The notes: generated from the letters alone by a model not told the origin. Positions 29,426 to 44,303 are shown, counted from the stretch's first letter. The stretch is 64,000 nt of DNA from an uncultured Solirubrobacterales bacterium (GCA_963817865.1 CAWFQO010000015.1:6385-70384); one strand, 5' to 3'. Translations and numbers: made by a program.

Positions 29426-30355
29426 CTACGAAACGGCGGCGCGGTCCCGGGCGGCGAGCCGTCCGGCTTCGACCGGGTCGCCGGACACGCGCCAGAGGGC
29501 GTCGTCGCCGAGCGCGGTACGGGTGATCGTCCCGGCGCAGACGAGCTCGACCAGGGCCTGCTCGGCGGCCGAGCGGTCGGGATCGGTGAGCGGCGGCGCC
29601 ATCACGGCGGCCACCTCCTGGGTGGTCAGGCCGCCGGGGAAGCGCTCGAGCACGGGCAGGGGGTCGGCGGGGGGCGGGGTCCGCTCGAGCGTCGGGTCGA
29701 GGTTCGCGAGGATCACGTCGTAGGCCTCGAGCGTCTGGAAGCCGCCGGCCTCGAGGCGCCGGCCGTCGGGGCGCTCGAAGATCAGCGACGGGGCGGTGTA
29801 GCGGACCGCCCCGTCGGTCGCGGCCGCCTTGCCCTGGAACTCGGTCGGGCTCCCGGCGGCGGTCCGGGCCTCGGCCCGGTCGCGCTCGTAGGCGGCGGTG
29901 ACCTCCGGCGAGTCGAGGGCGTCGACGATCGCGTCCGCGTCGAGCCCCTCGACCGGGCGCAGCGTCCGCCGGAGGTCGTCGTCGTCGTCGAAGACGACCG
30001 AGTCGGTGAAGTTGCCGAACTGGAGCGCCCGGAAGACGTCGTGCTCGAGCGCGGGCGTCCGCAGCCGGGTGGCCACGATCGCCCGGCAGGCCCGGCCGGT
30101 CGCTGAGATCCGCGGCCGGGGCACGGTCGAGAAGGGCATGCCGAAGCGGTCGCGGAACATGATGTAGCCGTGGAGCTGGCGGAGCGGGGTGTACCCGCGG
30201 TCGACGTACTGGCGGGCGTCCTCGGCCAGCCCGATCGTCACGAGGCGCCAGTCGAGCTGGTCGCCGTAGCGCCAGCCGAGGGCGGCGAGCGCGGGGCTCG
30301 CCGAGTAGGCCCAGGGACAGCCCGGGTCGGTGAAGTGAGTGGTCTCGATGGCCAT
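29426..30355 (-). CDS. DsbA-like thioredoxin-fold protein with C-terminal extension
   Basis: N-terminal FTDPGCPWAY lies in the position of the DsbA/FrnE CxxC motif, but here it is CPWA with a single Cys. Confidence 0.5.
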   Translation of the reverse strand: MAIETTHFTDPGCPWAYSASPALAALGWRYGDQLDWRLVTIGLAEDARQYVDRGYTPLRQLHGYIMFRDRFGMPFSTVPRPRISATGRACRAIVATRLRTPALEHDVFRALQFGNFTDSVVFDDDDDLRRTLRPVEGLDADAIVDALDSPEVTAAYERDRAEARTAAGSPTEFQGKAAATDGAVRYTAPSLIFERPDGRRLEAGGFQTLEAYDVILANLDPTLERTPPPADPLPVLERFPGGLTTQEVAAVMAPPLTDPDRSAAEQALVELVCAGTITRTALGDDALWRVSGDPVEAGRLAARDRAAVS

Positions 30356-30978: not shown

Positions 30979-31530
30979 CTACTCGGCGAGGAGCTCCTCG
31001 ACCGTGGTCAGGGTCAGGTCGGCCGCCCGGGGGATCGCCGCCTTGATCGCCTCGCTGAGCACCATGTCCATCTCGTCGACGTGCTCGACGACGAGCTCGG
31101 GCTCGCAGGCGAGGACGATGACTCGGCCGGGAAGGGAGCCGCTCACCTGCTTGACGAAGCGCAGGACGGCGGTCGGGTTCATCCCGTGGAGGTCGAGCGT
31201 CGCGCCGGCGGCGATCTGCCGGTCGATCTCCGCCTCGTCGGGCTCGATCGTGTAGAGGGTCCCCGGGGGATGGCCCTGACGGCTGATGTCGATCAGGATC
31301 AGGGCGTCGTAGCCGGCCATGACCTCGTAGGCGAGGTTGAGGCCGCCGGTGCCGAAGTCGATCACGGTGACGCCCTTGGGCAGCTCCCGCTCGAGCAGGA
31401 CCTTGGCCACGGCGGGGCCGAAGCCGTCGTCCTGGAGCCACTGGTTGCCGACCGCGGCGACGAGGATCCGCTTCTCGGCGGGCGGGGCCGGCGGACCGGG
31501 GTCGGCCGCGACGGGGGTGAACTCGGTCAT
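30979..31530 (-). CDS. hydrogenase maturation protease family protein (HybD/HycI-like)
   Basis: ILVAAVGNQWLQDDGFG, VIDFGTGG, ALILIDI and LDLHGM correspond to the GVGNxxxxDDGxG, DxGTxG, Asp and His metal-ligand motifs. The ATG overlaps the pxpC stop. Confidence 0.75.
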   Translation of the reverse strand: MTEFTPVAADPGPPAPPAEKRILVAAVGNQWLQDDGFGPAVAKVLLERELPKGVTVIDFGTGGLNLAYEVMAGYDALILIDISRQGHPPGTLYTIEPDEAEIDRQIAAGATLDLHGMNPTAVLRFVKQVSGSLPGRVIVLACEPELVVEHVDEMDMVLSEAIKAAIPRAADLTLTTVEELLAE

Positions 31531-32426
31531 GGAACCTCCACTGGTGGGCGGACACGAAGAGTAGGGGGACCGGGCGGCGAGGCCTCGCGGAAGCGGACCG
31601 CTTGCCCGGGTCGGAGCTGACCGGCGGTGGGGAGGTCGTCGCGGGAGACGACGGCGATCACCGGGTAGCCGCCGGTGGTCGGGTGGTCGGCGAGGAGGAG
31701 GATCGGGGCTCCGGACGGGGGCACCTGGAGGGCGCCGAGGACCATCCCCTCGGACTTGAGCTCGCCGGGTCGCCGGCGGTCGAGGGTGGGGCCGTCGAGC
31801 CGCAGACCGACCCGGTTGGAGGCGTCGGTGACCGTGTAGGGGGACCGGGTGAGCCGGCGCCGAGCCTCGTCGGTGAACCAGTCGGCGCGAGGGCCGAATA
31901 CGAGGCGGAGGGTCGGCTCGGCGGCGAGCGCCGGGGTCGGGGCGACGTCGACGGCGGGGAGCTCCCGGGGGGCGGGGCCGACGGCGATCCGCAGGCCGGC
32001 CCGGAGCGGCCGGGGACCGAGGCCGGTGAGCAGGTCGGTCGAGGCGCTGCCGAGGGTCAGCTCGGGGGCGAGACCGCCGCGAACGGCGATGTAGGTGCGC
32101 AGCCCGGCGGTCGCGCCGCCGACCTCGAGGACGTCGCCGGCGCGGAGATAGATCGGCGCGTTCATCGCGACGGGCCGGCCGCCGGCGCTGGCGTCGACCG
32201 GGGCGCCGGTCAGGGCGACGACGGCGTCGGCGTGGACGCGGAGCCGGGGGCCGACGAGCGTCGTCTCGAGCGCCGGGGCGTCCTCGGGGTTGGCCAGGAG
32301 GCGGTTGGCCAGGCGGAGGGCCCGGGGGTCGGCGGCCCCGGAGTGGGGCACGCCGATGTGGGCCCAGCCGGGACGACCGAGGTCCTGGATCGTGGTGAGC
32401 GAGCCGGGGTCGAGGATCTCGATCAC
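31527..32426 (-). CDS. pxpC: 5-oxoprolinase subunit C (KipA/allophanate hydrolase subunit 2 family)
   Basis: MIEILDPGSLTTIQDLGRPGWAHIGVPHSGAAD...GGYPVIAVV. Confidence 0.85.
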   Translation of the reverse strand: MIEILDPGSLTTIQDLGRPGWAHIGVPHSGAADPRALRLANRLLANPEDAPALETTLVGPRLRVHADAVVALTGAPVDASAGGRPVAMNAPIYLRAGDVLEVGGATAGLRTYIAVRGGLAPELTLGSASTDLLTGLGPRPLRAGLRIAVGPAPRELPAVDVAPTPALAAEPTLRLVFGPRADWFTDEARRRLTRSPYTVTDASNRVGLRLDGPTLDRRRPGELKSEGMVLGALQVPPSGAPILLLADHPTTGGYPVIAVVSRDDLPTAGQLRPGQAVRFREASPPGPPTLRVRPPVEVP

Positions 32427-33046
32427 CGGGGCTCGAAGACGACGCGCATCCCGGCCGCGAGGAGGGCCGGGGGGTCGCGGTCGGGATCGAAGAGGACGGT
32501 GTCGGTGTGGCCGAGGAGGTGCCAGCCGCCGGGGGCGCGGGTCGGGTAGACGGCGGTGTAGGTGCTGGCGATCGCCACCGAGCCGGCCGGGACCTGCGGT
32601 CGGGGATCGTCCCGCCGGGGCAGCTCGAGCGTCGGGCTCCCGCCGGTCAGGTAGGCGAACCCGGGCGCGAAGCCCATGAACGCGACGAGGTAGTCGGGCC
32701 GGCTGTGGAGCTCGATCACCCGGTCGACGTCGAGGCCGGCGGTCGTGGCGACGGTCTCGAGGTCGGGGCCGTCGTAGCGGACCGGGATGGTGATGGTCGG
32801 GAGCGGTTGGTCGCCGGCCGGGGCGAGGTCGAGCTGGCGCAGGGCGTGGACGAGCTCGGCCGGGGCGGGGGGCCGGTCGCGCCAGCAGAGGAGGAGCGTC
32901 TCCTCTCCGGGGACGACCTCCTCGACCTCGGCGCCGTAGTGGTCGCGGGCGGCGGCGGCGAGGAGGTGGACGCGATGGTTGTCGCCGACCTCGACGAGGA
33001 AGGCGTGGTCGCCGACCGGGCGGACGGCGAGCTCGGGGGTGGTCAC
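32423..33046 (-). CDS. pxpB: 5-oxoprolinase subunit B (KipI family)
   Basis: 207 aa, with VRPVGDHAFLVEV...VPGEETLLL...GFAPGFAYL. Confidence 0.85.
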   Translation of the reverse strand: MTTPELAVRPVGDHAFLVEVGDNHRVHLLAAAARDHYGAEVEEVVPGEETLLLCWRDRPPAPAELVHALRQLDLAPAGDQPLPTITIPVRYDGPDLETVATTAGLDVDRVIELHSRPDYLVAFMGFAPGFAYLTGGSPTLELPRRDDPRPQVPAGSVAIASTYTAVYPTRAPGGWHLLGHTDTVLFDPDRDPPALLAAGMRVVFEPR

Positions 33047-33798
33047 ACGAACGGCCGGATCTCGACGCCGGCCCGCTCGAGGCGCTCGCGCAGGGCGCGG
33101 GCGAGATCGGCCGCGCCGGGGGTGTCGCTGTGGAGGCAGAGCGAGTCGACCTCGAGGGTCAGGCGCTGGCCGTCGGCGGCTTGGGCGGAGTGGGAGCGGG
33201 CGATCTGCTCGGCCTGGTCGAGGGCGGCCGGGGCGCCGAGGACGCTCCCGGGCTGGCCGCGGGGCATGAGCCGGCCGTCGGCGAGGTAGGCACGGTCGGC
33301 GAACCCCTCGGCGGCCCCGGCGAGACCGTGGGCGGCGGCGGCGGCGAGGAGCTCGGAGCCGGGGGGTCCGAGGACGGCGAGGGGCGGGTCGAGGGCGGCG
33401 GCGGCGGCGGCGACCGCGTCGGCGGCCGGACGGTCGGCGGCGCAGCGGGCATAGAGCGCGCCATGGGGCTTGACGTAGGCGAGGCGCCCGCCGATCGCGC
33501 CGGCGCAGGCGGCGAGGGCTCCGAGCTGGTAGAGGGTCTCGTCGCGGAGGCGGTCGGGGGGGACGTCGAGGTGGCGCCGGCCGAAGCCGGGGCGGTCGTC
33601 GTAGCCGACGTGGGCGCCGATGCGCACGCCCCGGGCGACCGCGGCCTCGCAGACGGCGCGCATCGTCTGGGCGTCGCCGGCGTGGAAGCCGCAGGCGACG
33701 TTGGCGCTGGTCACGGCGTCGAGGATCGCGGCGTCGTCGTCGAGCGACCTGGGGCCGGTGCGCTCGCCGACGTCGGCGTTCAGGTCGATCACGGGCAT
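33043..33798 (-). CDS. pxpA: 5-oxoprolinase subunit A (LamB/YcsF family)
   Basis: MPVIDLNADVGE...ANVACGFHAGD...IGAHVGYDD...VKPHGALY. Confidence 0.9.
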   Translation of the reverse strand: MPVIDLNADVGERTGPRSLDDDAAILDAVTSANVACGFHAGDAQTMRAVCEAAVARGVRIGAHVGYDDRPGFGRRHLDVPPDRLRDETLYQLGALAACAGAIGGRLAYVKPHGALYARCAADRPAADAVAAAAAALDPPLAVLGPPGSELLAAAAAHGLAGAAEGFADRAYLADGRLMPRGQPGSVLGAPAALDQAEQIARSHSAQAADGQRLTLEVDSLCLHSDTPGAADLARALRERLERAGVEIRPFV

Positions 33799-33877: not shown

Positions 33878-34618
33878 TCAGGGGCCCACCCAGCACTCGA
33901 TGCAGTCCTCGCACGACCGGGGCCAGTTCTCGAGCGACCAGAGCGAGCCGATCGGCGTGAGCTCGTGGAAGCCGGCGTGCCCGCAGTAGTAGCAGCGGAG
34001 GAGGTCGTCGGGGAGGCCGGCGCCGGTGTGGGTGGTGAGGAGCTCGTTGAGCGAGCGGGGGACCTCGCGCTCGGCGATGTAGCGGTAGTCGTAGTCGTCG
34101 TACTCGCGCGGCGGCCCGATCGGCGTCTCGCCGAGCTTCCAGTCGGGGGGCTCGGCGTTCGGGTGGGTGAGGTCGAGGAGGCGGCCGTTGACGTCGATGC
34201 CGATGCCGGCGAGCTGGACGGAGGTCGGGCTGTCGGGGTCGTTGCCGGTGCCGACGCTGGCCACCCTCCAGCCGACCGGCCCGCGGGGGACGATCGTCTC
34301 GGTCGTGCCGGAGCCGATCAGGCGGGAGCGACGCTTGAGCAGGGGCTGGCCGAGGTGGGTGGCGCCGGGGTTGCCGGCGGCGTTGATGCGCGGGGTGAAC
34401 ACGGCGACGATCCGGTTGATCTGGTCGACCAGGCGGCGGTAGAGGCCCTCCTCGTGGGCGAGGCGGTGCTGGCGCTCGATCTCGCGGCAGCCGCTCCGGC
34501 AGACGGATTCGCCACCCTGCATGACCGAGTGCTCGCGACAGAGATAGCTGCCGCAGTCGGCGCAGCGTCCGATCGCGTAGATGCCGCAGTGGCAGGTGAA
34601 GGAGGCGATCTCGGTGAT
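33878..34618 (-). CDS. Cys-rich hypothetical protein; N-terminus uncertain (no canonical start for the Cys-cluster region)
   Basis: ORF track starts at ATG 34522. The frame is open and coding-like (hand count 31/35 G/C at third positions) back to a TAG at 34628..34630, and encodes ITEIASFTCHCGIYAIGRCADCGSYLCREHSV. The C-terminus carries CYYCGH...CEDCIEC. Confidence 0.5.
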   Translation of the reverse strand: MTEIASFTCHCGIYAIGRCADCGSYLCREHSVMQGGESVCRSGCREIERQHRLAHEEGLYRRLVDQINRIVAVFTPRINAAGNPGATHLGQPLLKRRSRLIGSGTTETIVPRGPVGWRVASVGTGNDPDSPTSVQLAGIGIDVNGRLLDLTHPNAEPPDWKLGETPIGPPREYDDYDYRYIAEREVPRSLNELLTTHTGAGLPDDLLRCYYCGHAGFHELTPIGSLWSLENWPRSCEDCIECWVGP

Positions 34619-34686
34619 CGACCGATCCTACCTCGCCGGGGGCGTCCCCGCCAGGGGCTTCGGGCCGTCCGACCGCGGCCGGGGGG

Positions 34687-35103
34687 TCAGCCGCCGGAGA
34701 ACGACCAGAAGGCGAGACCGGTGATGATCACCATGACGACTCCACCGACGATGCAGCCGATGATGAAGGCGCTGAGAACGGTCAGCGGGGTGCTGGCGAT
34801 GTCGATGACCCGGCGATCGGGGTCGGCCGGCCGGTCGAAGGTGCGGGTCGCCGCCGGCGGGGAGCGGACCGGGGCGCGACCGCCGGTGAGCTCGGGGTGC
34901 TCCTGGCTCCAGCGCTCGATCATGGCCCGCTGGGCGGCTCTGTCGACCGGTGCGGAGGGGGACGGGAGCGAGGCGGCGGACCGGGCCGGGGCGGGACGGG
35001 GGCGCTCGCGGGGGGCGGGGGCCGGCGACCCGTTGGAGAGCTCGGGATGCTCGGCCTTCCACTGCTCGATCAGATCCCTGGGTTCGGTGGTCCTGGTCGC
35101 CAT
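34687..35103 (-). CDS. tail-anchored membrane protein with an internal duplication
   Basis: LIEQWKAEHPELSNGSPAP and MIERWSQEHPELTGGRAP are repeats. There is a single C-terminal TM segment, LTVLSAFIIGCIVGGVVMVIITGLAFW. AAGGAG lies upstream of the ATG. Confidence 0.55.
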   Translation of the reverse strand: MATRTTEPRDLIEQWKAEHPELSNGSPAPAPRERPRPAPARSAASLPSPSAPVDRAAQRAMIERWSQEHPELTGGRAPVRSPPAATRTFDRPADPDRRVIDIASTPLTVLSAFIIGCIVGGVVMVIITGLAFWSFSGG

Positions 35104-35384
35104 GTCGTCTATGGCTCCTTGGTCGGGCTGGGGAGCGGTCGGGCCGAGCCGTTCATAGTGGAGGTAGGTTACCCGCCGGGTCCATCGTTGCCGTCAGGGT
35201 GCTCGATTCGGGGGTCGGCCAACCGCCTTCTCCAAAGATACGAAACCGGGCGGCGATCCGGCAAGAACCGCTCGGGCTGCTCGGAATGACCGGCGGGGAG
35301 CCTCAGAACTTCGGGAGGTCGCGTTGGGCTGGCAATTCGGCCCACCGGGACCGACGAACGCCCGATTTCCTGGTGCTTCTCGAG

Positions 35385-35455
35385 AGGCGACGATCGGAAT
35401 CGAACCGATGTACACGGCTTTGCAGGCCGTTGCGTAACCACTCCGCCACGTCGCC
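35385..35455 (-). tRNA. tRNA-Cys (GCA)
   Basis: GGCGACGTGGCGGAGTGGTTACGCAACGGCCTGCAAAGCCGTGTACATCGGTTCGATTCCGATCGTCGCCT folds as a cloverleaf with a 7-bp acceptor stem, anticodon loop CTGCAAA, T-loop TTCGATT and discriminator U. CCA is not encoded. Confidence 0.9.
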
Positions 35456-35514
35456 GCGCCGCGCCAAGCCTAGCGGCCGCGCCCCGACCGCCGTTGCTAG
35501 GCTTGCCTCTCCCA

Positions 35515-35587
35515 GGGCGATTAGCTCAGCTGGGAGAGCGCCGCCTCGACAAGGCGGAGGTCACTGGTTCGAGCCCAGTATCGCCCA
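35515..35587 (+). tRNA. tRNA-Val (GAC) with atypical anticodon loop TCGACAA
   Basis: GGGCGATTAGCTCAGCTGGGAGAGCGCCGCCTCGACAAGGCGGAGGTCACTGGTTCGAGCCCAGTATCGCCCA has perfect acceptor, anticodon (CCGCC/GGCGG) and T (ACTGG/CCAGT) stems and discriminator A. Position 33 reads C instead of the near-universal U. Confidence 0.85.
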
Positions 35588-35598
35588 TCATCAGAAAG

Positions 35599-35622
35599 CC
35601 CTGCAATCGCGGGGTTTCTTTT
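35599..35622 (+). terminator. intrinsic terminator after tRNA-Val
   Basis: CCCTGC-AATC-GCGGGG hairpin followed by TTTCTTTT. Confidence 0.6.
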
Positions 35623-35719
35623 GCCAGCTGCGCCGCCGGGTAGAGGGATATGGACGTTCTCGACCCCCGTTCGACCCTAAATCGGCTGTCCCGTCCGCCC
35701 CGGTGGGTACCTTGGATCC

Positions 35720-36106
35720 ATGCCTGAACGCTTCGACTGGCCCAACGCCGTCTTCAAGGACGACAACCTCTCAGTGGCTTTGTTGCGCGAGGAATCGCCC
35801 GAGTGGTGCCGCGCTCTTCATTTCTACCTCAGCGACGTGCTGGATCACCTAATAGGTGTTGGCGCTGACGCTGTCCGCGTCAACCCGACCAGCCGTACGC
35901 TCGTCCTGACCAACGTCATTGGCAACGCGCCGTCTCTCCCGCCGATTGTCGCGCAGTCCGCCGGTATGGCGGACGAGCACGAAGCGCGACAGGTTCGAGA
36001 AACGGCGCAGGCTTGGGAGGCCGTCGAGCGCTCGCAACGCGAGCAAGCAGAAGCGGACGAGCGGAGAACTCGCGAGATCCGCGAGGCTGCGAAAGTCAGG
36101 CAGTGA
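35720..36106 (+). CDS. hypothetical protein (128 aa)
   Basis: ORF with a charged C-terminal helix (EHEARQVRETAQAWEAVERSQREQAEADERRTREIREAAK). Its stop overlaps the next ATG (TGATG). Confidence 0.5.
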   Translation: MPERFDWPNAVFKDDNLSVALLREESPEWCRALHFYLSDVLDHLIGVGADAVRVNPTSRTLVLTNVIGNAPSLPPIVAQSAGMADEHEARQVRETAQAWEAVERSQREQAEADERRTREIREAAKVRQ

Positions 36107-36386
36107 TGCACGGCGTCTGCCTCGATGGTCCGCTCGCCCAAGAGTTCATCCCGGGCCTCCCGGACACGTTGACGAGTTGCCGCAGTTCTTGGAACTCCCG
36201 GCGTCAATCGACGATGACCCCGACGAGCCAGTAGAGCCGATCCCGCCGGGCGGCGAGTTCCCCGAGATGAAGTTCGAGTCCCATCTGTACCGCTACACGT
36301 CGATCACGGTCACGACCATCGGGAACGCTCCCCGCACGACGCGGATGATCGCGCGCTACAGGTACGTCCCGCCATCGGAGGTCTGA
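36106..36386 (+). CDS. hypothetical protein, apparent frame break near 36.15-36.17 kb
   Basis: MHGVCLDGPLAQEFIPGLPD (frame of ATG 36106, coupled to the upstream stop) continues in the -1 frame as VDELPQFLELPASIDDDPDEPVEPIPPGGEFPEMKFESHLYRYTSITVTT...PPSEV. Both parts have high third-position GC only in their own frame. Confidence 0.4.
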
Positions 36387-36391
36387 CAGCT

Positions 36392-36577
36392 GTGGCGACA
36401 CGCATCACGCTGGTTGGCGCCGCAGATCCAGTCCTGGTCCAGGAGGTCATGAGCGAGGTTCAGGCGGGGCTTGGCCGGGCCGAGCAAGGCGGGTTCTATC
36501 TCGCCACGCATAAGCCGTCTGGGCGATCGATCGCGATCCGAGCCCCCGCAGTCGCGGCGCTTCTACAGTTCGGTTAG
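36392..36577 (+). CDS. hypothetical protein (61 aa)
   Basis: GTG start with GGAGG 10 nt upstream. No family recognised. Confidence 0.45.
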   Translation: MATRITLVGAADPVLVQEVMSEVQAGLGRAEQGGFYLATHKPSGRSIAIRAPAVAALLQFG

Positions 36578-36846
36578 CGTCCCCGGTCGGCCAGACCGGG
36601 GGTCGGCCCCAACTCAGAGCGGCGCTCGACTAATAGACGCGTTGGCCAACTACATGCCCAAGGCCCAGGATCTCTTGGTCATCTTTCTTCTGAAGGTTCG
36701 GATCATTGAGGGCGACCTCCCAGCGGAGCTGAACCCCTACTACTCCCGTCTCGGTCGCGGCTCGTTTCTAACCTCCGATCGCCCCCGCGCGCGCCCGAGC
36801 AAACGACGCGAGACCACCTTTACCTCTTGCTAGAATCGTAAAGCGA

Positions 36847-37068
36847 ATGAGCAGGGTGTCGAGCAAGCATCAGGTCACGATCCCGGTCCATGTGCTCCGC
36901 CAGGCTGGCCTGGCGGCGGGCGATGATGTGGTTATCCGCGTGTCCGGCCGGGGCCGCGTCGAGGTCGAGCGCGCCGACGACCTCGTCGACCGCTACGCCG
37001 GCAGCCTCGCCGGCACCTACCCCCCCGGTCACCTTGACGAGCTCCGCGGCGAGTGGCGACGCGAGTAG
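36847..37068 (+). CDS. vapB: AbrB/SpoVT-family antitoxin
   Basis: SSKHQVTIPVHVLRQAGLAAGDDVVI is the looped-hinge-helix (AbrB/MazE) motif. It overlaps the downstream PIN gene. Confidence 0.8.
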   Translation: MSRVSSKHQVTIPVHVLRQAGLAAGDDVVIRVSGRGRVEVERADDLVDRYAGSLAGTYPPGHLDELRGEWRRE

Positions 37069-37445
37069 CACTCGACGCCGACGTCCTGATCGCCTTCCTC
37101 GACGCTGCGGACGAGCAGCACCAACGCGCCGTCGAGGTTCTGCGCCCCGAGCTCGCCGCCGGCCGGAGGATGCTGCTGAGCGCGAGTGTCTACGCAGAGA
37201 TCATGGTCCGCGCGCTCGAGCAGGCGACCGACGCGACGGTCGATGAATTCCTCGAGGCGATCGGCGCCACCATCGTCCCGGTCGACCGCACACTCGCTCG
37301 ACGCGCGGCCGAACTCCGCGCCCGTCATCGCGCTCTGCGCCTCCCCGACGCATTCTCCCTGGCGACCGCCCTGACCACTGACGCCGCACTCCTCACCCTC
37401 GACCACCGGCTCGCTCGGATCGCCGAGCGCGAGCGGTCTGCCTAG
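37053..37445 (+). CDS. vapC: PIN-domain ribonuclease toxin
   Basis: VALDADVLIAFLD (first acidic residue), ...SASVYAEI..., ...LPDAFSLATAL..DAALLTLD are PIN acidic motifs. Confidence 0.8.
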   Translation: MATRVALDADVLIAFLDAADEQHQRAVEVLRPELAAGRRMLLSASVYAEIMVRALEQATDATVDEFLEAIGATIVPVDRTLARRAAELRARHRALRLPDAFSLATALTTDAALLTLDHRLARIAERERSA

Positions 37446-37556
37446 TCACGGTCGGAGGGACCAGCCGGCGACATCCGAGCGAGCGGGTCCTCGGCCCCGA
37501 CCACCCCGACACGCCCGGTTCCCTATTCACGCACCCCCCGGGGGTAGGGTCTTCAC

Positions 37557-38246
37557 GTGGGACGGCCGGGGGCCCCCAACGCAAGCGATGCCGAGCTGGT
37601 CGATGCCGTGCGCCGCGGCGATCTCGGGGCCTTCGAGGTCCTCTACGACCGCCATCTCCCCGGGGTCAGAGCCGCCGTCCGCGGCCAGATCCGGGACGCC
37701 GACGAGGTGGCCGACGCGGTTCAGGAGACGTTCGCCCGCGCCCTCGCCTCGCTCCCCCAACTCCAGACGGCCGAGCGGTTTCGGCCGTGGCTCTTGTCGA
37801 TCGCCCGCCACACAGCGATCGACGCCCGCCGCGGTCGCGCCCACTGGCAGCCCGAGTTGCTCGGGGCGGCCGAGCAGCTCGAGAGCGGCGACCCCTCGCC
37901 CGCCGAGCTGGCCGAGATCGCCGAGCTCGCGACCGTCGTGCGGATCGCGATCGGAGGGCTCTCGTCGCGCGACGCTACGGCTCTCGGCCTCGTCGCCCTC
38001 GGGTTCGGCGTCGACGACGTGGCCGGCGCTCTGGGGATCGGCCGCGGAGCCGCGAAGGTCGCGCTCTACCGCGGCCGCAGGAGGCTTCGCGCCGCCGTCC
38101 TGCTCGAGATCCTCACCCGGCGACAGGTGCCCGGTTGTCCTCAGCTCGCGGAGATCGTCCCCGATCGGCTCGTCGAGGTCGCCCGCCATCTCGAGACGTG
38201 CGAGGCCTGCGCCGACGCCGCCCTCGTCCGACCCTCCGGCGCCTGA
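37557..38246 (+). CDS. ECF-type RNA polymerase sigma factor with C-terminal Cx16Hx3Cx2C (ZAS-like) extension
   Basis: Region 2 is FEVLYDRHLPGVRAAV...FRPWLLSIARHTAIDARR. Region 4 is LSSRDATALGLVALGFGVDDVAGALGIGRGAAKVALYRGRRRL. It is followed by VPGCPQLAEIVPDRLVEVARHLETCEAC. Confidence 0.8.
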   Translation: MGRPGAPNASDAELVDAVRRGDLGAFEVLYDRHLPGVRAAVRGQIRDADEVADAVQETFARALASLPQLQTAERFRPWLLSIARHTAIDARRGRAHWQPELLGAAEQLESGDPSPAELAEIAELATVVRIAIGGLSSRDATALGLVALGFGVDDVAGALGIGRGAAKVALYRGRRRLRAAVLLEILTRRQVPGCPQLAEIVPDRLVEVARHLETCEACADAALVRPSGA

Positions 38247-38909: not shown

Positions 38910-39374
38910 ATGCTGGTCGCCGACGTCATGGACCCCGATCCGGCCGAGATCGCGCTTGACGCGACGTTTCGGCAGGCCGCGGACTCGTTCGTCGAGCACC
39001 GGACCAGCGACCTCGTCGTCACCGACGGCGGTCGCTACGTCGGGATCCTCTCCGAGGGGGACCTCCTCCGAGCGCTGCTGCCCGACTTCGAGCCGATGAC
39101 GAAGTCGGTCGCCGGCGTCTCGCTCGACGAGGCTTCGCGGCTGTTCCTCGACTCCGGCCGCTTCAACGCCGACCGGTCGATCGCCTCACTCGTGCTCCGG
39201 CGACCGATCTTCCTGGCCCCAGGCGACCCGCTGCTCAAGGCCGCCACCGTGATGACCGCCGAGCACATCCGCCGGCTCCCGGTGATCGAGGACGGGGCGG
39301 TGGTCGGGATGCTGGCCCGCGCGAAGATCTCCCGGGCCCTGCTCTCCGATCCGCCGACCCCGGCCTCAGCCTGA
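38910..39374 (+). CDS. CBS domain pair protein
   Basis: Two CBS repeats: VADVMDPDP...DLVVTDGGRYVGILSEGDLLRAL and ...HIRRLPVIEDGAVVGMLARAKISRAL. Confidence 0.8.
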   Translation: MLVADVMDPDPAEIALDATFRQAADSFVEHRTSDLVVTDGGRYVGILSEGDLLRALLPDFEPMTKSVAGVSLDEASRLFLDSGRFNADRSIASLVLRRPIFLAPGDPLLKAATVMTAEHIRRLPVIEDGAVVGMLARAKISRALLSDPPTPASA

Positions 39375-42300
39375 GCCGACCGGCTCCCCCGGCACCGGCC
39401 GCCAGCCGAGCTCACCCAAGCCACCGACGAACTCCCGGTGCCAGCGGCGCAGGAGCTCCGGCACCCGGTCGAGGATCGCGATCAGCAGCTCTCCGCCCTC
39501 GCCGCTCGTCGCCGCCTCGAGCTGCTCGAACACGATCACGCCCTGGCGGATGGTCTCCCGGGCTTCGTCGAGGAACGCCTTGTCCTGCCGGGCGACGAGT
39601 CCGATCAGCTCGCGCAGCGATGCCCATTCCGACGCCGCGACAGCGTCGAACGCCCCATCGACCCGCTTGTAGAAGGTCTTGAACTCCTCGGAGAAGCTCC
39701 GGACCAGATCCGCCTCGGTGGTCGTCTCGGCATCGCTGATCGCCGCGTGGAGGCTCCGCGCGAAGTCCGGGGGCGCGCACAGCCCGCGGGTCAGCGCCCA
39801 CAGGTTGAGGACGTCCTCCCCGAGCGCGGCCGCGTAGTAGTTGGCCAGGAACCGCTGGTGGGTGTTGGAGGCGAACTGGACCTTGAGCGCGTTCAGCTCG
39901 TTCGGGTCGTCATTGCGGGTCATCGCGCCCGTGAGGTAGCCCCAGTCGTTCTGCAGGGCGTTGCCCATCTCGGTCAGCAGGTGCATGAACCGGACCCAGC
40001 TGCGGTAGAGATCGTGGAGGGTGACGACCGACAGCCCGAGCTTCGGGACGAGCGCGATCCCCCAGGCGTCGCCGAAGTCGAGCCGGCGGATCGAGCCGAT
40101 CTTGTACATCGCGAGCATCGCGTCGATCTCGCTGTTCTCGTGATGGAGCACGGCCTCGTACTCGCGCGTCGCGTCGAGGCCGAGGTTCTCGACGATGATC
40201 CGCGGACCGCCCGGATGGAGGTGGAGGAACTCGGTCATGTCGTAGACCTCGCCGTTCACCGTCAGCCACTGACCGGCCTCCGGCGTGGTCCGCAGCGCCA
40301 CCTCCGAGGCGTCGTAGACCCCACCTCCGAGCGCCCCGGGCCCGTCGTGCGGGGTCCAGCTCGTGAAGACGTCCTGCATGTAGCGCCCGTCGGCGACGAG
40401 CTGGCGCACGGCGATCCGCGCCTGCTCTCGGTCCCCGACGAACTCCTCGGCGACGGCCGTCAGCGCGCGCATGACGCTCTGGGCGAACCCGGCGCGCCCG
40501 CAGACGTAGAAGAACGCGCCGCCCTCGATCAGCGCCCACAGGGTGGCCCGCGCCTCGGGATCGGACGCGATCGCCGGCGCGATCCGCGCCGGGGCGCCGG
40601 CCGTCTCGACGAGCGGGCCGCCCGCGTCGCCCCGCAACCGGCCGTCCGCGCGGGAGAACGCGACCCGGAGCGAGAGCTCGCCCCGCTCGACCGCCGCCGC
40701 CAGCTCCGGCTCGCAGTAGAGCCGATCGCGTGAGGCCGTCGCGTAGAACAGCCAGTTCGCGCCCGTCGAGCCGTCGCTCCCCCGCTGCGCGATGAAGCCG
40801 AGGAACGGGGCGATGCCAACCCCGCCAGCGAACATCACGATCGGGCGGGAAGGGTCTCGGGGCAGCGTGAACCGGCTCGGACGCACGACCTGGATCGGGA
40901 ACGTCTCCCCCGCGGCGGTCTCGGTCACGTAGGTCGACGCCGTCCCGACGAGCTCGCCGCCGCGCTCGCCGGCGTAGCGTAGCTGGGCCACGGTCAGCGC
41001 GAGCTCGTCGGAGACGCCACCCGGGCCACCGTCCGGGGCCGACGCGACCGAGTACATGCGGAAGTCCTCGGGCGGGACGATCCGGGCCAGGGCCTCCCGC
41101 TGCTCGAGGCCCGCCTCGAGCAGCCGGGTCACGGCGTACCCCTCGAGGTGCAGCAGCGAGAGCACGTCGACCAGCTCCCACTCTGACTCGAGGTGGGCCT
41201 CGACGACGTCGCGCAGCCGCGGGGAGGCCGAGATGTCCATCAGCGCCTTGGCCATCGACCGGCTCATCGGGCGCAGCCTCGCGTAGGCCAGGAACGTCCG
41301 CAGCGGCAGCGTCGTCGCGCCCTGACGGTGCTCCGGCCGGTGGCGGACCGCCTGGCGCCAGCGGGCGTTCAGCGGGACGACCTCCTCGCCGCTCGCCCGC
41401 AGCGCCCGCAGCGTCCGCTCGACCGCCTCGGGACGGTTCGTCGGCAGCACCCCGCAGCGATCGCCCGGCCGGTAGACGACACCGGTCCCGGCGGCGTCGA
41501 GGACGATCCGCTTGACGGCGCCGTCGCTGCTCGTCGCCTCCCTCGAGCGCACCCGCGCCGCCTGCGAGTGGGGCGGGAGCTCCTTGTAGCGCTCGGTCCG
41601 CGTGTCCTCGAGGATCCGGTCGAGCGTCTTCCAGTGCCGGTCCTTGAACCCGCCCTCGATGTGGGTGATGGTGATCGAGCGGCCGACCTTGAACGCGAGC
41701 TCGAGGAAGCCATAGACCTTCAGCCGGTGGATGCCGAGGTATCCCTTCTTGCCTGCATAGGCATCGAACAGGGCGTCCCACAGACTCTGGAGCCGGCGAT
41801 CGCCGGTCCCGGCGACGTAGTCGCGGACCGAGACGGCGTCGACCGCGCGCAGGAAGGCGAGCTGGCGGACGGGGAACGAGTCACGGATGAAGCCCACCTC
41901 CTTGGCGAGCATCGACTCCTTGAACCGGCGGGCGAGAAACGCGTCCATCAGGTGGAAGATCGGAGACGCCTCGCCGCCCGGGCCCGGCGTTCCGCTCTCG
42001 ATCGGAACCGCGAGCGGGGCGACCGAGTTCGCCCATACCACCTGGTCGACGTAGGTCGCCGACAGCGGGTTCGGGTCGACCTTGCGGAAGGACAGCTCGG
42101 CGATGTCGCGCCAGGTCGCGAGCATCAGCAGCAGCTCCGCCACCAGCGCTCCGTCGTCCCGGCGGATCGCCGCCTCCTGAGCCCTGACCACCGAGCCGAC
42201 GAGCGGCGTCCCCCGGGCGAGGATCTCGACCTGGGCGAGGTAGAAGCGCCGCTCCTCGATGTTGTCGACGCTCGGGACGAGCAGCTCCATGTTGTCGATC

Positions 42301-42809
42301 GTGTGACCGAGCGTCGGATCGACCAGGCGGTGGTTGTAGACGATCAGGTCGTTGTAGGACATGTACGGGCCGGAGCGCCCGAGCCGTGCCGCGACCTGCG
42401 CCCAGGGGACGGCCACCGACGCCGGCAGATCGCCGGCGGGAAGCTTCTCGACGTAGACGTAGGCGTGGGCGAAGACGGCCATGGCCGAGGCCGCCCGCAA
42501 GACGTACTCGTCGGGCAGGGCCTCGGGCCCGGCGCTGAGCACCGGCATCGCGCGCAACGCCTGCCGGAGCGAGACCGTCCGCCAGAGCTCCGGCATCGCC
42601 GCGACGATCGCATCCCACGGCGCATGGGACGGTGGGAAGGCCCGCATCGTCGGGATCTTCGGGATGAACCCATGTGATGCCGACAGGAAGCCGTCGAGCT
42701 CGTGGCCCACCTGCGCGGTGTGACGCTCGGCTGCCTCGAGGACCGATCGGCTGGGCACGGACTCCGGGCCGGTGCTACCGGCCAGCAGATCCTCCAAGGT
42801 CATCGACAC
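39366..42809 (-). CDS. multidomain heme/flavin enzyme: IDO-like dioxygenase domain + FAD/NAD(P)H ferredoxin-reductase module + cytochrome b5 domain + helical C-terminal domain
   Basis: 1147-aa ORF. IDO-like motifs are GPGGEASPIFHLMDAFL, IRDSFPVRQLAFL and YLGIHRLKVYGFL. FNR motifs are RMYSVAS, MFAGGVGIAPFLGF and FYVCGRAGFAQSV. The b5 motif is EFLHLHPGGPRII...EAVLHH. Confidence 0.75.
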   Translation of the reverse strand: MSMTLEDLLAGSTGPESVPSRSVLEAAERHTAQVGHELDGFLSASHGFIPKIPTMRAFPPSHAPWDAIVAAMPELWRTVSLRQALRAMPVLSAGPEALPDEYVLRAASAMAVFAHAYVYVEKLPAGDLPASVAVPWAQVAARLGRSGPYMSYNDLIVYNHRLVDPTLGHTIDNMELLVPSVDNIEERRFYLAQVEILARGTPLVGSVVRAQEAAIRRDDGALVAELLLMLATWRDIAELSFRKVDPNPLSATYVDQVVWANSVAPLAVPIESGTPGPGGEASPIFHLMDAFLARRFKESMLAKEVGFIRDSFPVRQLAFLRAVDAVSVRDYVAGTGDRRLQSLWDALFDAYAGKKGYLGIHRLKVYGFLELAFKVGRSITITHIEGGFKDRHWKTLDRILEDTRTERYKELPPHSQAARVRSREATSSDGAVKRIVLDAAGTGVVYRPGDRCGVLPTNRPEAVERTLRALRASGEEVVPLNARWRQAVRHRPEHRQGATTLPLRTFLAYARLRPMSRSMAKALMDISASPRLRDVVEAHLESEWELVDVLSLLHLEGYAVTRLLEAGLEQREALARIVPPEDFRMYSVASAPDGGPGGVSDELALTVAQLRYAGERGGELVGTASTYVTETAAGETFPIQVVRPSRFTLPRDPSRPIVMFAGGVGIAPFLGFIAQRGSDGSTGANWLFYATASRDRLYCEPELAAAVERGELSLRVAFSRADGRLRGDAGGPLVETAGAPARIAPAIASDPEARATLWALIEGGAFFYVCGRAGFAQSVMRALTAVAEEFVGDREQARIAVRQLVADGRYMQDVFTSWTPHDGPGALGGGVYDASEVALRTTPEAGQWLTVNGEVYDMTEFLHLHPGGPRIIVENLGLDATREYEAVLHHENSEIDAMLAMYKIGSIRRLDFGDAWGIALVPKLGLSVVTLHDLYRSWVRFMHLLTEMGNALQNDWGYLTGAMTRNDDPNELNALKVQFASNTHQRFLANYYAAALGEDVLNLWALTRGLCAPPDFARSLHAAISDAETTTEADLVRSFSEEFKTFYKRVDGAFDAVAASEWASLRELIGLVARQDKAFLDEARETIRQGVIVFEQLEAATSGEGGELLIAILDRVPELLRRWHREFVGGLGELGWRPVPGEPVGSG

Positions 42810-42861: not shown

Positions 42862-43794
42862 CTAGGGGCCGCCGTCACGGAGCAGCCCGGCTTGGACGGT
42901 GTGGATCGCCGATGTGGCCCGCGGCGAGAGGAGCGACGCCCCAGCGCGCGCGTCGGTCACCCGGGGCGGTGCGGCGCCGCCGCGGGCGTTCGCCGCGGTC
43001 GCCCAGAGCACCGACTTGAGCTGAAACGGTCGCAGGCTCGGATGCTTCGAGCAGACCAACGCGGCGATCCCGGCGATGTGCGGGGCGGCATACGAATTGC
43101 CGGTGACCCGCCGCGTGCCTCCGTCCAGCCAGGCGACCTCGACGTCGATCCCCGGAGCGAGGAACTCGGTCGGGGGGTCGGGGTTGGCATGGAAGTCGAA
43201 TGCGTCGCGCGCGGTGTTGCAGGCGACGCTGGCCACCGACGCGCACAGGCTCGGGAAGCTCTGCTCCGCGGCGTTGCTGGCCGCCGTGACGACGAAGCAG
43301 CCCTGGAAGTAGGCGCGATCACAGAGCTCGTACAACGGCAGCGCCCAGTCCCGCCGGCCGGTTCCGAGCGACAGGTTGATCACGTCGAATCGGTGCTCGA
43401 TCGCCCACGCCAGCCCGTGGAGGAACACCGCCGCCCGCCCGCCCAGTCCTCCCCCGAGGACCTTGACGCTGGTGATCCGGGCCTCGGGGGCGATCCGGTG
43501 GATGATCGAGGCGCACGCCGTCCCGTGGCCGAACACGTCACCGTGCGCGCCGCCCCGCTCGCTGACGCCCCCGTCGCGCTCGAGCTTGAGGGCGACCCCG
43601 TCGTCGACGCAGCCCTCGAGCGCCGCGTGGCCGGCGTCGATCCCGCTGTCGAGGACGGCGACCCGGACCCCCCGGCCGGTCGCTCCGCCCCAGGCCCACT
43701 CCGGGTCCGGATGCAGCGGCCCCCGCTCGAGGGCGAGCGGGACGAAGATCGATTCGCCGCGGGAGAACGCCGGCCGCTCGCCCGCGCCGACCAT
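42862..43794 (-). CDS. S8 (subtilisin-like) serine peptidase without signal peptide
   Basis: Catalytic triad contexts VAVLDSGID, HGTACASII and TGNSYAAPHIAGIAAL. The ATG at 43794 overlaps the GAF gene stop (TGATG). Confidence 0.85.
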   Translation of the reverse strand: MVGAGERPAFSRGESIFVPLALERGPLHPDPEWAWGGATGRGVRVAVLDSGIDAGHAALEGCVDDGVALKLERDGGVSERGGAHGDVFGHGTACASIIHRIAPEARITSVKVLGGGLGGRAAVFLHGLAWAIEHRFDVINLSLGTGRRDWALPLYELCDRAYFQGCFVVTAASNAAEQSFPSLCASVASVACNTARDAFDFHANPDPPTEFLAPGIDVEVAWLDGGTRRVTGNSYAAPHIAGIAALVCSKHPSLRPFQLKSVLWATAANARGGAAPPRVTDARAGASLLSPRATSAIHTVQAGLLRDGGP

Positions 43795-44303
43795 CAGCTC
43801 ATGAGGGCGCCGATCGCCCGCGCCAGGCTTGCGTACCGGACCGGATCGCTCGCCTCGAGCCGGGCCAGCTCTCCGGCCAGCTCGGGCGGCGACGGCACGG
43901 CCGCGGCGCCGGCCGGCCCGATCGACATCGCCGCCCCGGCGACCTGGCCGAACAGCATCGCCACGCCGGTCGCCTCGATCGGAAACGGATCCTCGCCCGG
44001 ACCACGGACGAGCTCGAGGACCCCGACCGGCTCGGCCTCGTGCAGGCAGGGGACGCACAGGACCGCGCGGTCGCCGGACCCGGAAGCCGCGACGCTGAAC
44101 GGCTGACCGGAGGCGAGCGCGTAGCCGACCCCGCCGCTGTCCGGGGCGACGCGCGCGCCCAGGCGCCAGCCGGTCGCGCTGCCGGCGAGCGCGACCACGT
44201 GCAGGGCGTCACCCTCGCAGGCCAGCAGCCGAGCCGCCGCCGCCTCCGTCGCTCGCCGCGCCGCGTCGGCCACGGCATCGGCGACGGAACCCGACGAGGT
44301 CAT
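43794..44303 (-). CDS. GAF domain protein (169 aa)
   Basis: ARLLACEGDALHVVALAGS...GYALASGQPFSV...LCVPCLHEAEPVGVLELV is the GAF-like core pattern. Confidence 0.6.
   Translation of the reverse strand: MTSSGSVADAVADAARRATEAAAARLLACEGDALHVVALAGSATGWRLGARVAPDSGGVGYALASGQPFSVAASGSGDRAVLCVPCLHEAEPVGVLELVRGPGEDPFPIEATGVAMLFGQVAGAAMSIGPAGAAAVPSPPELAGELARLEASDPVRYASLARAIGALMS

Follow-up and report, generated by a model that had tools for sequence, protein, structure and literature searches.

In a 64,000-nucleotide stretch of DNA from an uncultured Solirubrobacterales bacterium (GCA_963817865.1 CAWFQO010000015.1:6385-70384; here called the window), one uninterrupted open reading frame (ORF) on the minus strand (39366..42809) encodes a fusion protein of 1147 aa, in which an IDO-like heme domain is joined to a flavin adenine dinucleotide (FAD)/NAD(P)H module, a cytochrome b5 domain, and a C-terminal helical domain. 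Translation was read from GTG 42809; the alternative start ATG 42803 gives 1145 aa, and the public protein P0001 (1145 aa) is 100% identical to this shorter product. A Shine-Dalgarno-like GAGGAA lies upstream of both start codons. The G+C content of the window is approximately 72%, and that at third codon positions of the fusion ORF is 0.94 and uniform, as in genuine genes of this DNA. Four Pfam families match the protein, each above its curated cut-off: IDO (PF01231), FAD_binding_1 (PF00667), NAD_binding_1 (PF00175), and Cyt-b5 (PF00173). These are the families that an initial annotation of the window had predicted, and its reading of the protein as an IDO-family heme domain, an FAD/NAD(P)H module lacking a flavin mononucleotide (FMN) domain, a cytochrome b5, and a helical tail proved right for every domain. 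No p450, NO_synthase, globin, or FAD_binding_6 domain was matched in the fusion protein by Pfam, and the NCBIfam flavohemoprotein model matched its NAD part only (E=1e-4). A second paralogue of the fusion was not found within the window.

The IDO-like heme domain comprises residues 1 to 415 (41565..42809, minus strand). The PF01231 match (96.1 bits versus a cut-off of 26, E=2.5e-27) covers residues 43 to 231 and spans only profile positions 8 to 197 of 412, i.e., the first half, while other members of the family match positions 8 to 339. Sequence searches against solved structures returned IDO1 and IDO2 only, with E=1e-15 for the single sequence and, for the family profile, E=1e-33 for IDO2 and E=1e-29 for IDO1. 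In line with this, hhalign aligned the family profile to human IDO1 with 99% probability over 306 columns; the human IDO1 sequence served as alignment target only. An AlphaFold2 model of residues 1 to 415, built with a 28-sequence alignment, reached a pLDDT of 91 and a pTM of 0.91. Since the top 50 Foldseek matches of this model in the PDB were all IDO1 or IDO2 (probability 1.0, TM 0.72 to 0.87, 384 to 423 columns), the predicted fold is that of IDO, two-domain and all-helical, throughout the domain and beyond the N-terminal half matched by Pfam. We therefore assign the N-terminal domain to the IDO family, as a divergent member.

Two of the three motif pairings with IDO that had been proposed by eye, GPGGEASPIFHLMDAFL with GGSAGQSSVFQCFD and IRDSFPVRQLAFL with MRRYMPPAHRNFL, were reproduced by phmmer and hhalign against IDO1 and IDO2. 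Conservation was then counted in a 28-member alignment (A3), with equivalences taken from hhalign against IDO1. The residues on the heme and O2 side of IDO1 are retained: Y126 corresponds to Y152 (26/28), F163 to F189 (28/28), A264 to A281 (alanine in 20 sequences, serine in 8), and D274 to D289 (28/28). G262 corresponds to G279 (codon 41973..41975, minus strand), conserved in all 28 sequences and located in the distal heme-pocket loop, where GPGGEAS aligns with GGSAGQS in both phmmer and hhalign. The positions that hold the amino acid part of L-tryptophan in IDO1 are replaced; F226 is variable (A/R/S), F227 is T in 22 of the 28 sequences, and R231 is Q in 14, P in 13, and L in 1. Furthermore, alignment and model show that the family keeps a flexible GG loop resembling the substrate-gating JK loop of IDO.

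The third pairing, which had placed YLGIHRLKVYGFL at the proximal-histidine motif SYHLQIVTKYI, was not reproduced. The phmmer, hmmsearch, and hhalign alignments all end at Y357, the equivalent of IDO1 Y345 and one residue short of H346. In register with H346 is L358, and H361 (codon 41727..41729, minus strand) lies three residues further on. H361 is invariant (28/28 in A3), stands at the start of a helix predicted by AlphaFold2 (residues 357 to 374), and is part of an invariant H-R-x-K-x-Y-G sequence; of the 250 family proteins with 420 aa or more, 220 carry an HRxK-type motif. Only three histidines are conserved in the IDO-like domain, and H361 alone lies in the C-terminal half. H361 is the obvious candidate for the proximal heme ligand; it begins the expected helix but is shifted by three residues relative to IDO1 H346.

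The flavin module (residues 416 to 820; 40350..41564, minus strand) is of the cytochrome P450 reductase (CPR)/sulfite reductase (SiR) type, as judged by PF00667 (34.1 bits versus 32.3, residues 423 to 627), PF00175 (33.6 bits versus 22, residues 659 to 779), and matches in the PDB. Residues 417 to 815 align over their whole length with the FAD/NADPH portions of the SiR flavoprotein, CPR, and the P450 BM3 reductase (E=1e-21 to 1e-24), and the alignments to BM3 and nitric oxide synthase (NOS) include their reductase parts only. The motifs RMYSVAS, GGVGIAPF, and YVCGRAGF, singled out in the initial annotation, are present, and in a 22-sequence alignment R584/Y586/S587, G663/G665/P668, and C770/G771 are invariant. 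The sequence DVF (F815) probably occupies the place of the FAD-stacking DVW of CPR. The best NCBIfam match was sulfite reductase alpha, far below its cut-off (139 versus 432 bits), and the fusion protein is therefore not a CysJ orthologue. A flavodoxin/FMN domain (PF00258) was not matched by Pfam even at E<=1, as the initial annotation had claimed, and the approximately 10 residues that separate the IDO-like domain from the FAD domain (residues 415 to 423) could not accommodate one. The module is CPR/SiR-like, but for lack of the FMN domain it is not a diflavin reductase.

Approximately 18 residues after DVF, a cytochrome b5 domain begins (residues 835 to 907; 40089..40307, minus strand; PF00173, 58.7 bits versus 23.7, E=6e-16). 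H865 of the HPGG motif (40215-40217) and H889, the second histidine, which follows DAT (40143-40145), align with the axial ligands of rat outer membrane (OM) b5 and of the sulfite oxidase b5 domain (E=5e-14). Both are invariant in the 22-sequence alignment, and the b5 domain is canonical. It is joined without a linker by the C-terminal domain (residues 905 to 1147; 39369..40097, minus strand), which AlphaFold2 models as a beta-hairpin followed by approximately eight helices (pLDDT 93.3, pTM 0.89). Foldseek detected no structural relative of this domain in the PDB (best E=0.13, TM<=0.28); matches to b562/BRIL and to designed bundles (E 0.1 to 1, TM<=0.28) were dismissed as generic helix matches. 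Sequence relatives were not found in Pfam (28 members scanned), in NCBIfam, or by PDB profile search, in agreement with an earlier description of the C terminus as helical and free of recognizable motifs. A profile search for the domain outside the fusion returned two fragments, with a word prefilter that missed even known family members. W938, M948, N950, R986, F1094, and E1095 are invariant, and the domain is kept in the short forms of the family described below. It is thus a conserved domain without a detectable relative. In summary, sequence and models together show a protein predicted to be soluble, in which an IDO-fold heme pocket and the invariant H361 are combined with a CPR-type module for FAD and NAD(P)H, a b5 domain that has both its axial histidines, and a conserved helical domain.

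The architecture search suggested in the initial annotation revealed a widespread bacterial family. A scan of 185,579 species, each represented by a single genome, detected 215 relatives of the IDO-like domain, and more than 120 full-length proteins (38 to 100% identity) share the same four-part architecture. The hosts belong to at least five phyla, namely Actinomycetota, Chloroflexota, Myxococcota, Bdellovibrionota (Oligoflexus), and Acidobacteriota; relatives in Bacteroidota and Alphaproteobacteria come from single metagenome-assembled genomes. An exhaustive profile search of 1.84 billion representatives yielded 441 clusters at E<=1e-30. In 76 independent loci, every complete ORF carried the four modules in one frame, with the exception of L020, in which BLAST did not detect the C-terminal domain. 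Public names for these proteins are limited to "cytochrome b5 domain-containing protein," "FHA domain-containing protein," and "sulfite reductase alpha-like."

While approximately 85 of the 150 top representatives have the four-part architecture, approximately 30 are short forms (660 to 750 aa) composed of the IDO-like, b5, and helical domains without the flavin module. After the b5 domain, direct reading and domain search revealed approximately 200 residues with the motifs of the C-terminal domain. The invariant core of the family is therefore IDO-like heme, b5, and helical domain, with b5 as the constant partner; the long form has the FAD/NAD(P)H module inserted into this core, after the IDO-like domain and before b5. 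In the short forms the reductase is presumably supplied in trans; the short-form locus L089 has no adjacent reductase or CBS gene, though only 638 nt of upstream sequence are available there.

Longer variants carry additional domains. An N-terminal FHA domain defines one type (approximately 1235 aa), and an N-terminal GGACT/AIG2-like domain together with a C-terminal extension another (approximately 1570 aa); further variants have a C-terminal imine-reductase/reductive-aminase-like module, a DsbA-like domain, or a short-chain dehydrogenase/reductase (SDR). Among the rare C-terminal additions are NAD_binding_2 with a RedAm-like module or a DsbA-like thioredoxin domain (P0211 and P0245, 1457 to 1497 aa; P0158, 1350 aa). 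The window also encodes a separate DsbA-like protein (29426-30355, minus strand), approximately 9 kb from the fusion gene. The extra conserved C-terminal region of approximately 150 aa in the GGACT-type proteins P0065, P0080, and P0109 (…YGxVVDxRQAPxRNDPxFExAM…SExAAxxFA; alignment A1, columns ~1530 to 1670) has no precomputed Pfam domain and superficially recalls STAS/anti-sigma-antagonist-like modules. Acrocarpospora catenulata has two paralogues in one genome (L009 and L079): a plain type that shares 70% identity with the window protein and has no CBS gene next to it, and an FHA type, 45% identical and with a CBS gene upstream. Therefore, the plain and FHA subfamilies have probably diverged in function or regulation.

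To the 3' end of the fusion gene, with a 9-nt overlap, a convergent gene on the plus strand (38910..39374) encodes a CBS-pair (Bateman module) protein of 154 aa (two PF00571 matches, E=4e-23). When flanking ORFs were clustered over the 76 loci, a CBS-pair gene was the only recurrent neighbor. It lies within 700 nt of the fusion in 54 loci, immediately upstream on the same strand in 52 and convergent, as in the window, in 2; several of the remaining loci lack upstream sequence. All FHA-type and most Chloroflexota loci have this gene, and it is absent from the GGACT type and from the Streptomyces/Acrocarpospora clade. Across phyla, the CBS proteins are 36 to 59% identical to that of the window and have in common an insert that separates the two CBS motifs. 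No match to a named subfamily was found for them, and they are bare Bateman modules. A kynurenine-pathway enzyme (formamidase or kynureninase), another metabolic gene, or a biosynthetic cluster did not recur as a neighbor in the 76 loci.

Taking the domain content and the neighborhood together, we tentatively propose, at somewhat less than an even chance, that the protein is a self-contained enzyme in which electrons run from NAD(P)H via FAD and b5 to an IDO-type heme and are consumed in each turnover. NAD(P)H would reduce the FAD, from which single electrons would pass to the b5 heme, with b5 in the role that the FMN domain has in P450 BM3 or NOS. The b5 would then reduce the His-ligated heme of the IDO-like domain, at which O2 would be activated, and the helical domain probably scaffolds the contact between the two hemes' domains. 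Spent in this way, the electrons would support monooxygenase-type or similar reductant-dependent O2 chemistry and would not merely rescue an autoxidized dioxygenase. As substrate we would expect a small molecule, indole-like or an aromatic amine, with a binding mode other than that of L-tryptophan in IDO1. Control of the activity probably lies with the dedicated CBS-pair protein; Bateman modules are typically nucleotide-sensing. In sister clades, the N-terminal FHA domain may replace or supplement the control by CBS.

The part of this proposal that concerns b5 draws on the short forms: the retention of b5 and helical domain in members without the flavin module argues that the IDO-type heme would receive its electrons directly and obligatorily from b5. 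Our leaning toward electron use in each turnover, as opposed to heme rescue only, has four reasons. First, a whole flavin reductase is permanently fused here, as in P450 BM3, NOS, and flavohemoglobin, and known enzymes with a fused b5 or flavin reductase use the chain in every cycle. Second, the tryptophan-binding residues are lost while those of the O2 side are kept. Third, there is no downstream kynurenine pathway, and fourth, relatives carry fused domains that process small molecules (imine-reductase-like, GGACT-like, SDR, and DsbA-like). Reductant-dependent monooxygenase chemistry is described in the IDO/TDO superfamily for MarE (PMC12312684), a monooxygenase side-path is described for human IDO1 (PMC12921851), and an ascorbate- and O2-driven monooxygenation is described for a heme tyrosine hydroxylase (bioRxiv 10.64898/2026.04.24.720734).

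Several points weigh against the proposed enzyme. In none of the sequence alignments does H361 fall into register with IDO1 H346. The loss of the tryptophan-binding residues is less secure than the conservation counts suggest, as the stretch corresponding to IDO1 F226 to R231 aligns with low reliability and has a predicted local structure unlike that of IDO1. The order and geometry of electron transfer are inferred from the domain order only, and CPR-type FAD domains normally pass their electrons to FMN; direct transfer from FAD to b5 is known for modules of the b5 reductase type, not of the CPR type. Moreover, His-ligated hemes are poorer monooxygenases than thiolate hemes. Finally, because IDO1 needs continual re-reduction, a rescue role would be fully adequate for a fused b5.

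This last point leads to the reading given in the initial annotation, a genuine tryptophan/indoleamine 2,3-dioxygenase in which the FAD module and b5 only re-reduce ferric heme after autoxidation, with sub-stoichiometric use of electrons. We consider it possible, if doubtful. It is consistent with the membership in the IDO family, the fold of the whole domain, and the conserved distal-pocket residues F189, G279, A281, and Y152. To our knowledge, most bacteria have no soluble b5, and a fused one would solve a real problem. Furthermore, cytochrome b5, together with a flavoprotein reductase, is described as the proposed physiological reductant of IDO in cells (PMC4191572, citing Vottero 2006 and Maghzal 2008), and the fusion is a Rosetta-stone match to this pair. 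Against a tryptophan dioxygenase, the equivalents of F226, F227, and R231 are replaced, no formamidase or kynureninase gene recurs nearby, and the Pfam match of the window protein is limited to the first half of the IDO profile. Moreover, a permanent fusion fits electron use in each turnover, as in the known fused enzymes, at least as well as a chain that only keeps the heme ferrous.

Improbable, in our view, is an analogue of flavohemoglobin (Hmp) built on the IDO scaffold, in which O2-bound heme would turn over nitric oxide (as an NO dioxygenase) or nitrite, would be re-reduced once per cycle, and would need no organic substrate. The architecture parallels Hmp in its His-ligated, O2-binding heme and NAD(P)H/FAD reductase, the gene stands alone without pathway neighbors, and the loss of the tryptophan-binding residues would fit. 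Members of the IDO family that have lost tryptophan turnover and only bind O2 are described, such as the gastropod IDO-like myoglobins (PMC4191572). In Cryptosporangium arvum, the genes right after the fusion (L007, 11938-13566) encode an Rrf2-family regulator and a flavohemoglobin. This adjacency was seen in only 1 of the 76 loci, and the nitric oxide link was downgraded. Against an NO- or nitrite-converting enzyme also speak the retained JK-like flexible GG loop and roomy IDO-type pocket, and the GGACT, imine-reductase-like, and SDR domains fused in relatives, which point to organic substrates.

In the lineage of the window, further genes lie close by. Approximately 50 nt upstream of the fusion gene and on the same strand, a subtilisin-like S8 peptidase is encoded (42862..43794, minus strand; PF00082, E=2e-29), preceded by a gene for a GAF-domain protein (43794..44303, minus strand; GAF Pfam families) whose stop codon overlaps the S8 start codon (TGATG). 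This overlap indicates translational coupling of the GAF and S8 genes. No terminator-like site was found in the gap between the S8 and fusion genes, and the two are probably cotranscribed; in a promoter and terminator scan, sites were no more numerous than expected by chance. The trio of GAF, S8, and fusion genes occurs only in the window and in L003, a 90%-identical metagenomic relative, so the S8 peptidase and the GAF protein were rejected as functional partners and regarded as lineage-specific. The second gene downstream of the fusion (37557-38246, plus strand) encodes an ECF-type sigma factor (Sigma70_r2/r4_2), and 5 of the 76 loci, which come from different phyla (L003, L005, L038, L054, and L080), have similar sigma genes close to the fusion. 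Ser/Thr kinase, P450, and ECF sigma genes, found at three to five loci each, were rejected as conserved neighbors.

It is very unlikely that the protein is primarily a redox, O2, or heme sensor with a readout via the FHA domain, the CBS partner, or the helical domain. Regulatory modules do recur, with FHA in cis, CBS in trans, and, in this lineage, GAF and ECF sigma genes nearby, but no variant has a recognizable output domain (kinase, cyclase, or DNA-binding), a complete chain from NAD(P)H to heme would be costly for a sensor, and the CBS protein is a bare Bateman module. An assembly chimera or fused pseudogenes, about which the initial annotation had cautioned and for which nothing speaks apart from the unusual length, is excluded as an artefact by the uninterrupted ORF with its uniform third-position G+C, the same architecture in the proteins and species-representative genomes counted above, relatives in complete chromosomes such as CP159919.1 and NZ_CP187232.1, and conservation across all domain junctions in the 22-sequence alignment.

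Other candidates and features of the neighborhood were also considered. A conserved ORF downstream of the fusion in 19 loci proved to be an Arg-rich antisense artefact. Membership in a known defense system was rejected: none of the PADLOC models of known defense proteins matched the fusion, CBS, or GAF proteins, and the S8 neighbor gave a generic subtilase match only. UkkA of the "Ukko" system in an antiphage preprint is a different, TDO-type enzyme. At eight loci of the Chloroflexota type (including L005/L006, L020, L026, L031, L032, and L041), a conserved protein of approximately 390 to 405 aa without a Pfam match is encoded directly downstream; in L005 the genes next in line encode PIG-L deacetylases, one of which carries a fused cNMP-binding domain, as well as a GT4 glycosyltransferase, an arrangement resembling a low-molecular-weight-thiol or glycoside pathway.

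Further away in the window, a complete 5-oxoprolinase set (LamB/YcsF, CT_C_D, and CT_A_B; pxpABC-like) lies on the minus strand (31527-33798), approximately 5.5 kb from the fusion gene, and it is also present in L003. The GGACT/AIG2-like domain of the sister variants belongs to a 5-oxoproline-releasing class; the co-occurrence could be a coincidence, or it could hint at gamma-glutamyl amines that feed the enzyme. A HycI-like hydrogenase maturation protease gene (30979-31530, minus strand) stands alone, with no hydrogenase genes among the annotated neighbors. A divergent pair of tRNA genes, tRNA-Cys(GCA) (35384-35455, minus strand) and tRNA-Val(GAC) (35515-35587, plus strand), falls into a region (34500-37500) of lower G+C (0.69), where the codon-position signal is weak and none of the ORFs has a Pfam match. 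At the syntenic position, L003 has an Eco57I-like N6 methyltransferase instead, and the region may be variable or an integration hot spot.

In comparison with known systems, the IDO-like domain shares with IDO1 and IDO2 the fold over approximately 400 residues (TM 0.72 to 0.87) and the layout of a small and a large domain, together with the equivalents of the distal-loop G-x-A, F163, Y126, and D274, a flexible GG loop at the place of the JK loop, and an invariant histidine at the start of the presumed proximal helix. It differs in its low identity (approximately 20%), in the replacement of F226/F227/R231, and in the three-residue shift of the histidine; moreover, the fusion family is bacterial, and its IDO-like domain is covalently joined to electron donors and an extra helical domain. 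In its design, the protein resembles P450 BM3 (CYP102A1) and NOS, with a single polypeptide in which a CPR-type FAD/NAD(P)H module comes after an N-terminal catalytic heme domain and with homology in the FAD/NADPH part (PDB, E ~1e-21 to 1e-23), but it is not a member of either group. Its heme domain has the IDO fold and is presumably His-ligated rather than thiolate-ligated, a C-terminal b5 would take the shuttle role of FMN, and the helical domain is added.

In NCB5OR and assimilatory nitrate reductase, too, a single chain contains b5 together with an FAD/NAD(P)H module, and electrons pass from flavin via the b5 heme to a terminal center. Theirs, however, is the smaller FAD_binding_6 module of the b5 reductase type, in contrast to the CPR/SiR-type FAD_binding_1 module with connecting subdomain and the IDO-type terminal heme of the fusion. 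Hmp, likewise encoded by a stand-alone gene, joins a His-ligated, O2-binding heme domain to an FAD/NAD(P)H reductase and requires one electron for each turnover, but it has a globin fold unrelated in sequence and transfers electrons directly from FAD to heme without b5. MarE, PrnB, and the heme tyrosine hydroxylases have His-ligated hemes related to TDO/IDO and perform non-dioxygenase chemistry on aromatic amino acids, in some cases driven by reductant; in contrast to the fusion, these enzymes consist of one domain, belong mostly to the TDO branch, have their genes in biosynthetic clusters, and work in vitro with ascorbate or H2O2; none carries a fused redox chain. The gastropod IDO-like myoglobins show that the IDO fold can serve O2 binding alone after loss of tryptophan turnover, but they are eukaryotic, single-domain, and without attached redox partners.

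By analogy of design, the fusion stands with P450 BM3, NOS, flavohemoglobin, and nitrate reductase, in which a catalytic center is fused to its electron supply, and it belongs to none of them. A publication describing an IDO-like/flavin/b5 fusion was not found in the searchable literature, in line with the initial annotation, which knew of no characterized protein with this architecture. What is new is the undescribed combination of known cofactor domains with one domain that has no relative, in proteins that have been sequenced many times and apparently never studied. Beyond the initial annotation, the analysis adds the reductase-free short form, the conserved CBS-pair neighbor, and the size and distribution of the family.

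IDO1 is a major drug target, and its need for an external reductant has complicated assays and the understanding of its regulation in cells. The fusion is independent evolutionary support for the partnership between b5 and IDO, and it would offer a tractable single-polypeptide system for electron delivery to an IDO-type heme. It is also a candidate NADPH-driven biocatalyst without need for methylene blue or ascorbate. With a large family in at least five phyla, a dedicated regulatory partner, and a domain without a structural relative, it represents untouched bacterial heme biochemistry. The window protein may perhaps, although we hold this to be uncertain and rather unlikely, be the founding member of a class of self-powered IDO-fold oxygenases in developmentally complex soil bacteria, which would spend NAD(P)H electrons in every turnover via an obligate b5 and a new helical domain, would be gated by a CBS-pair protein, and would form an indole-derived or nitrogen-oxide product, possibly for signaling. 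If this is true, these bacteria would have a counterpart of NOS, P450 BM3, or flavohemoglobin on an IDO scaffold.

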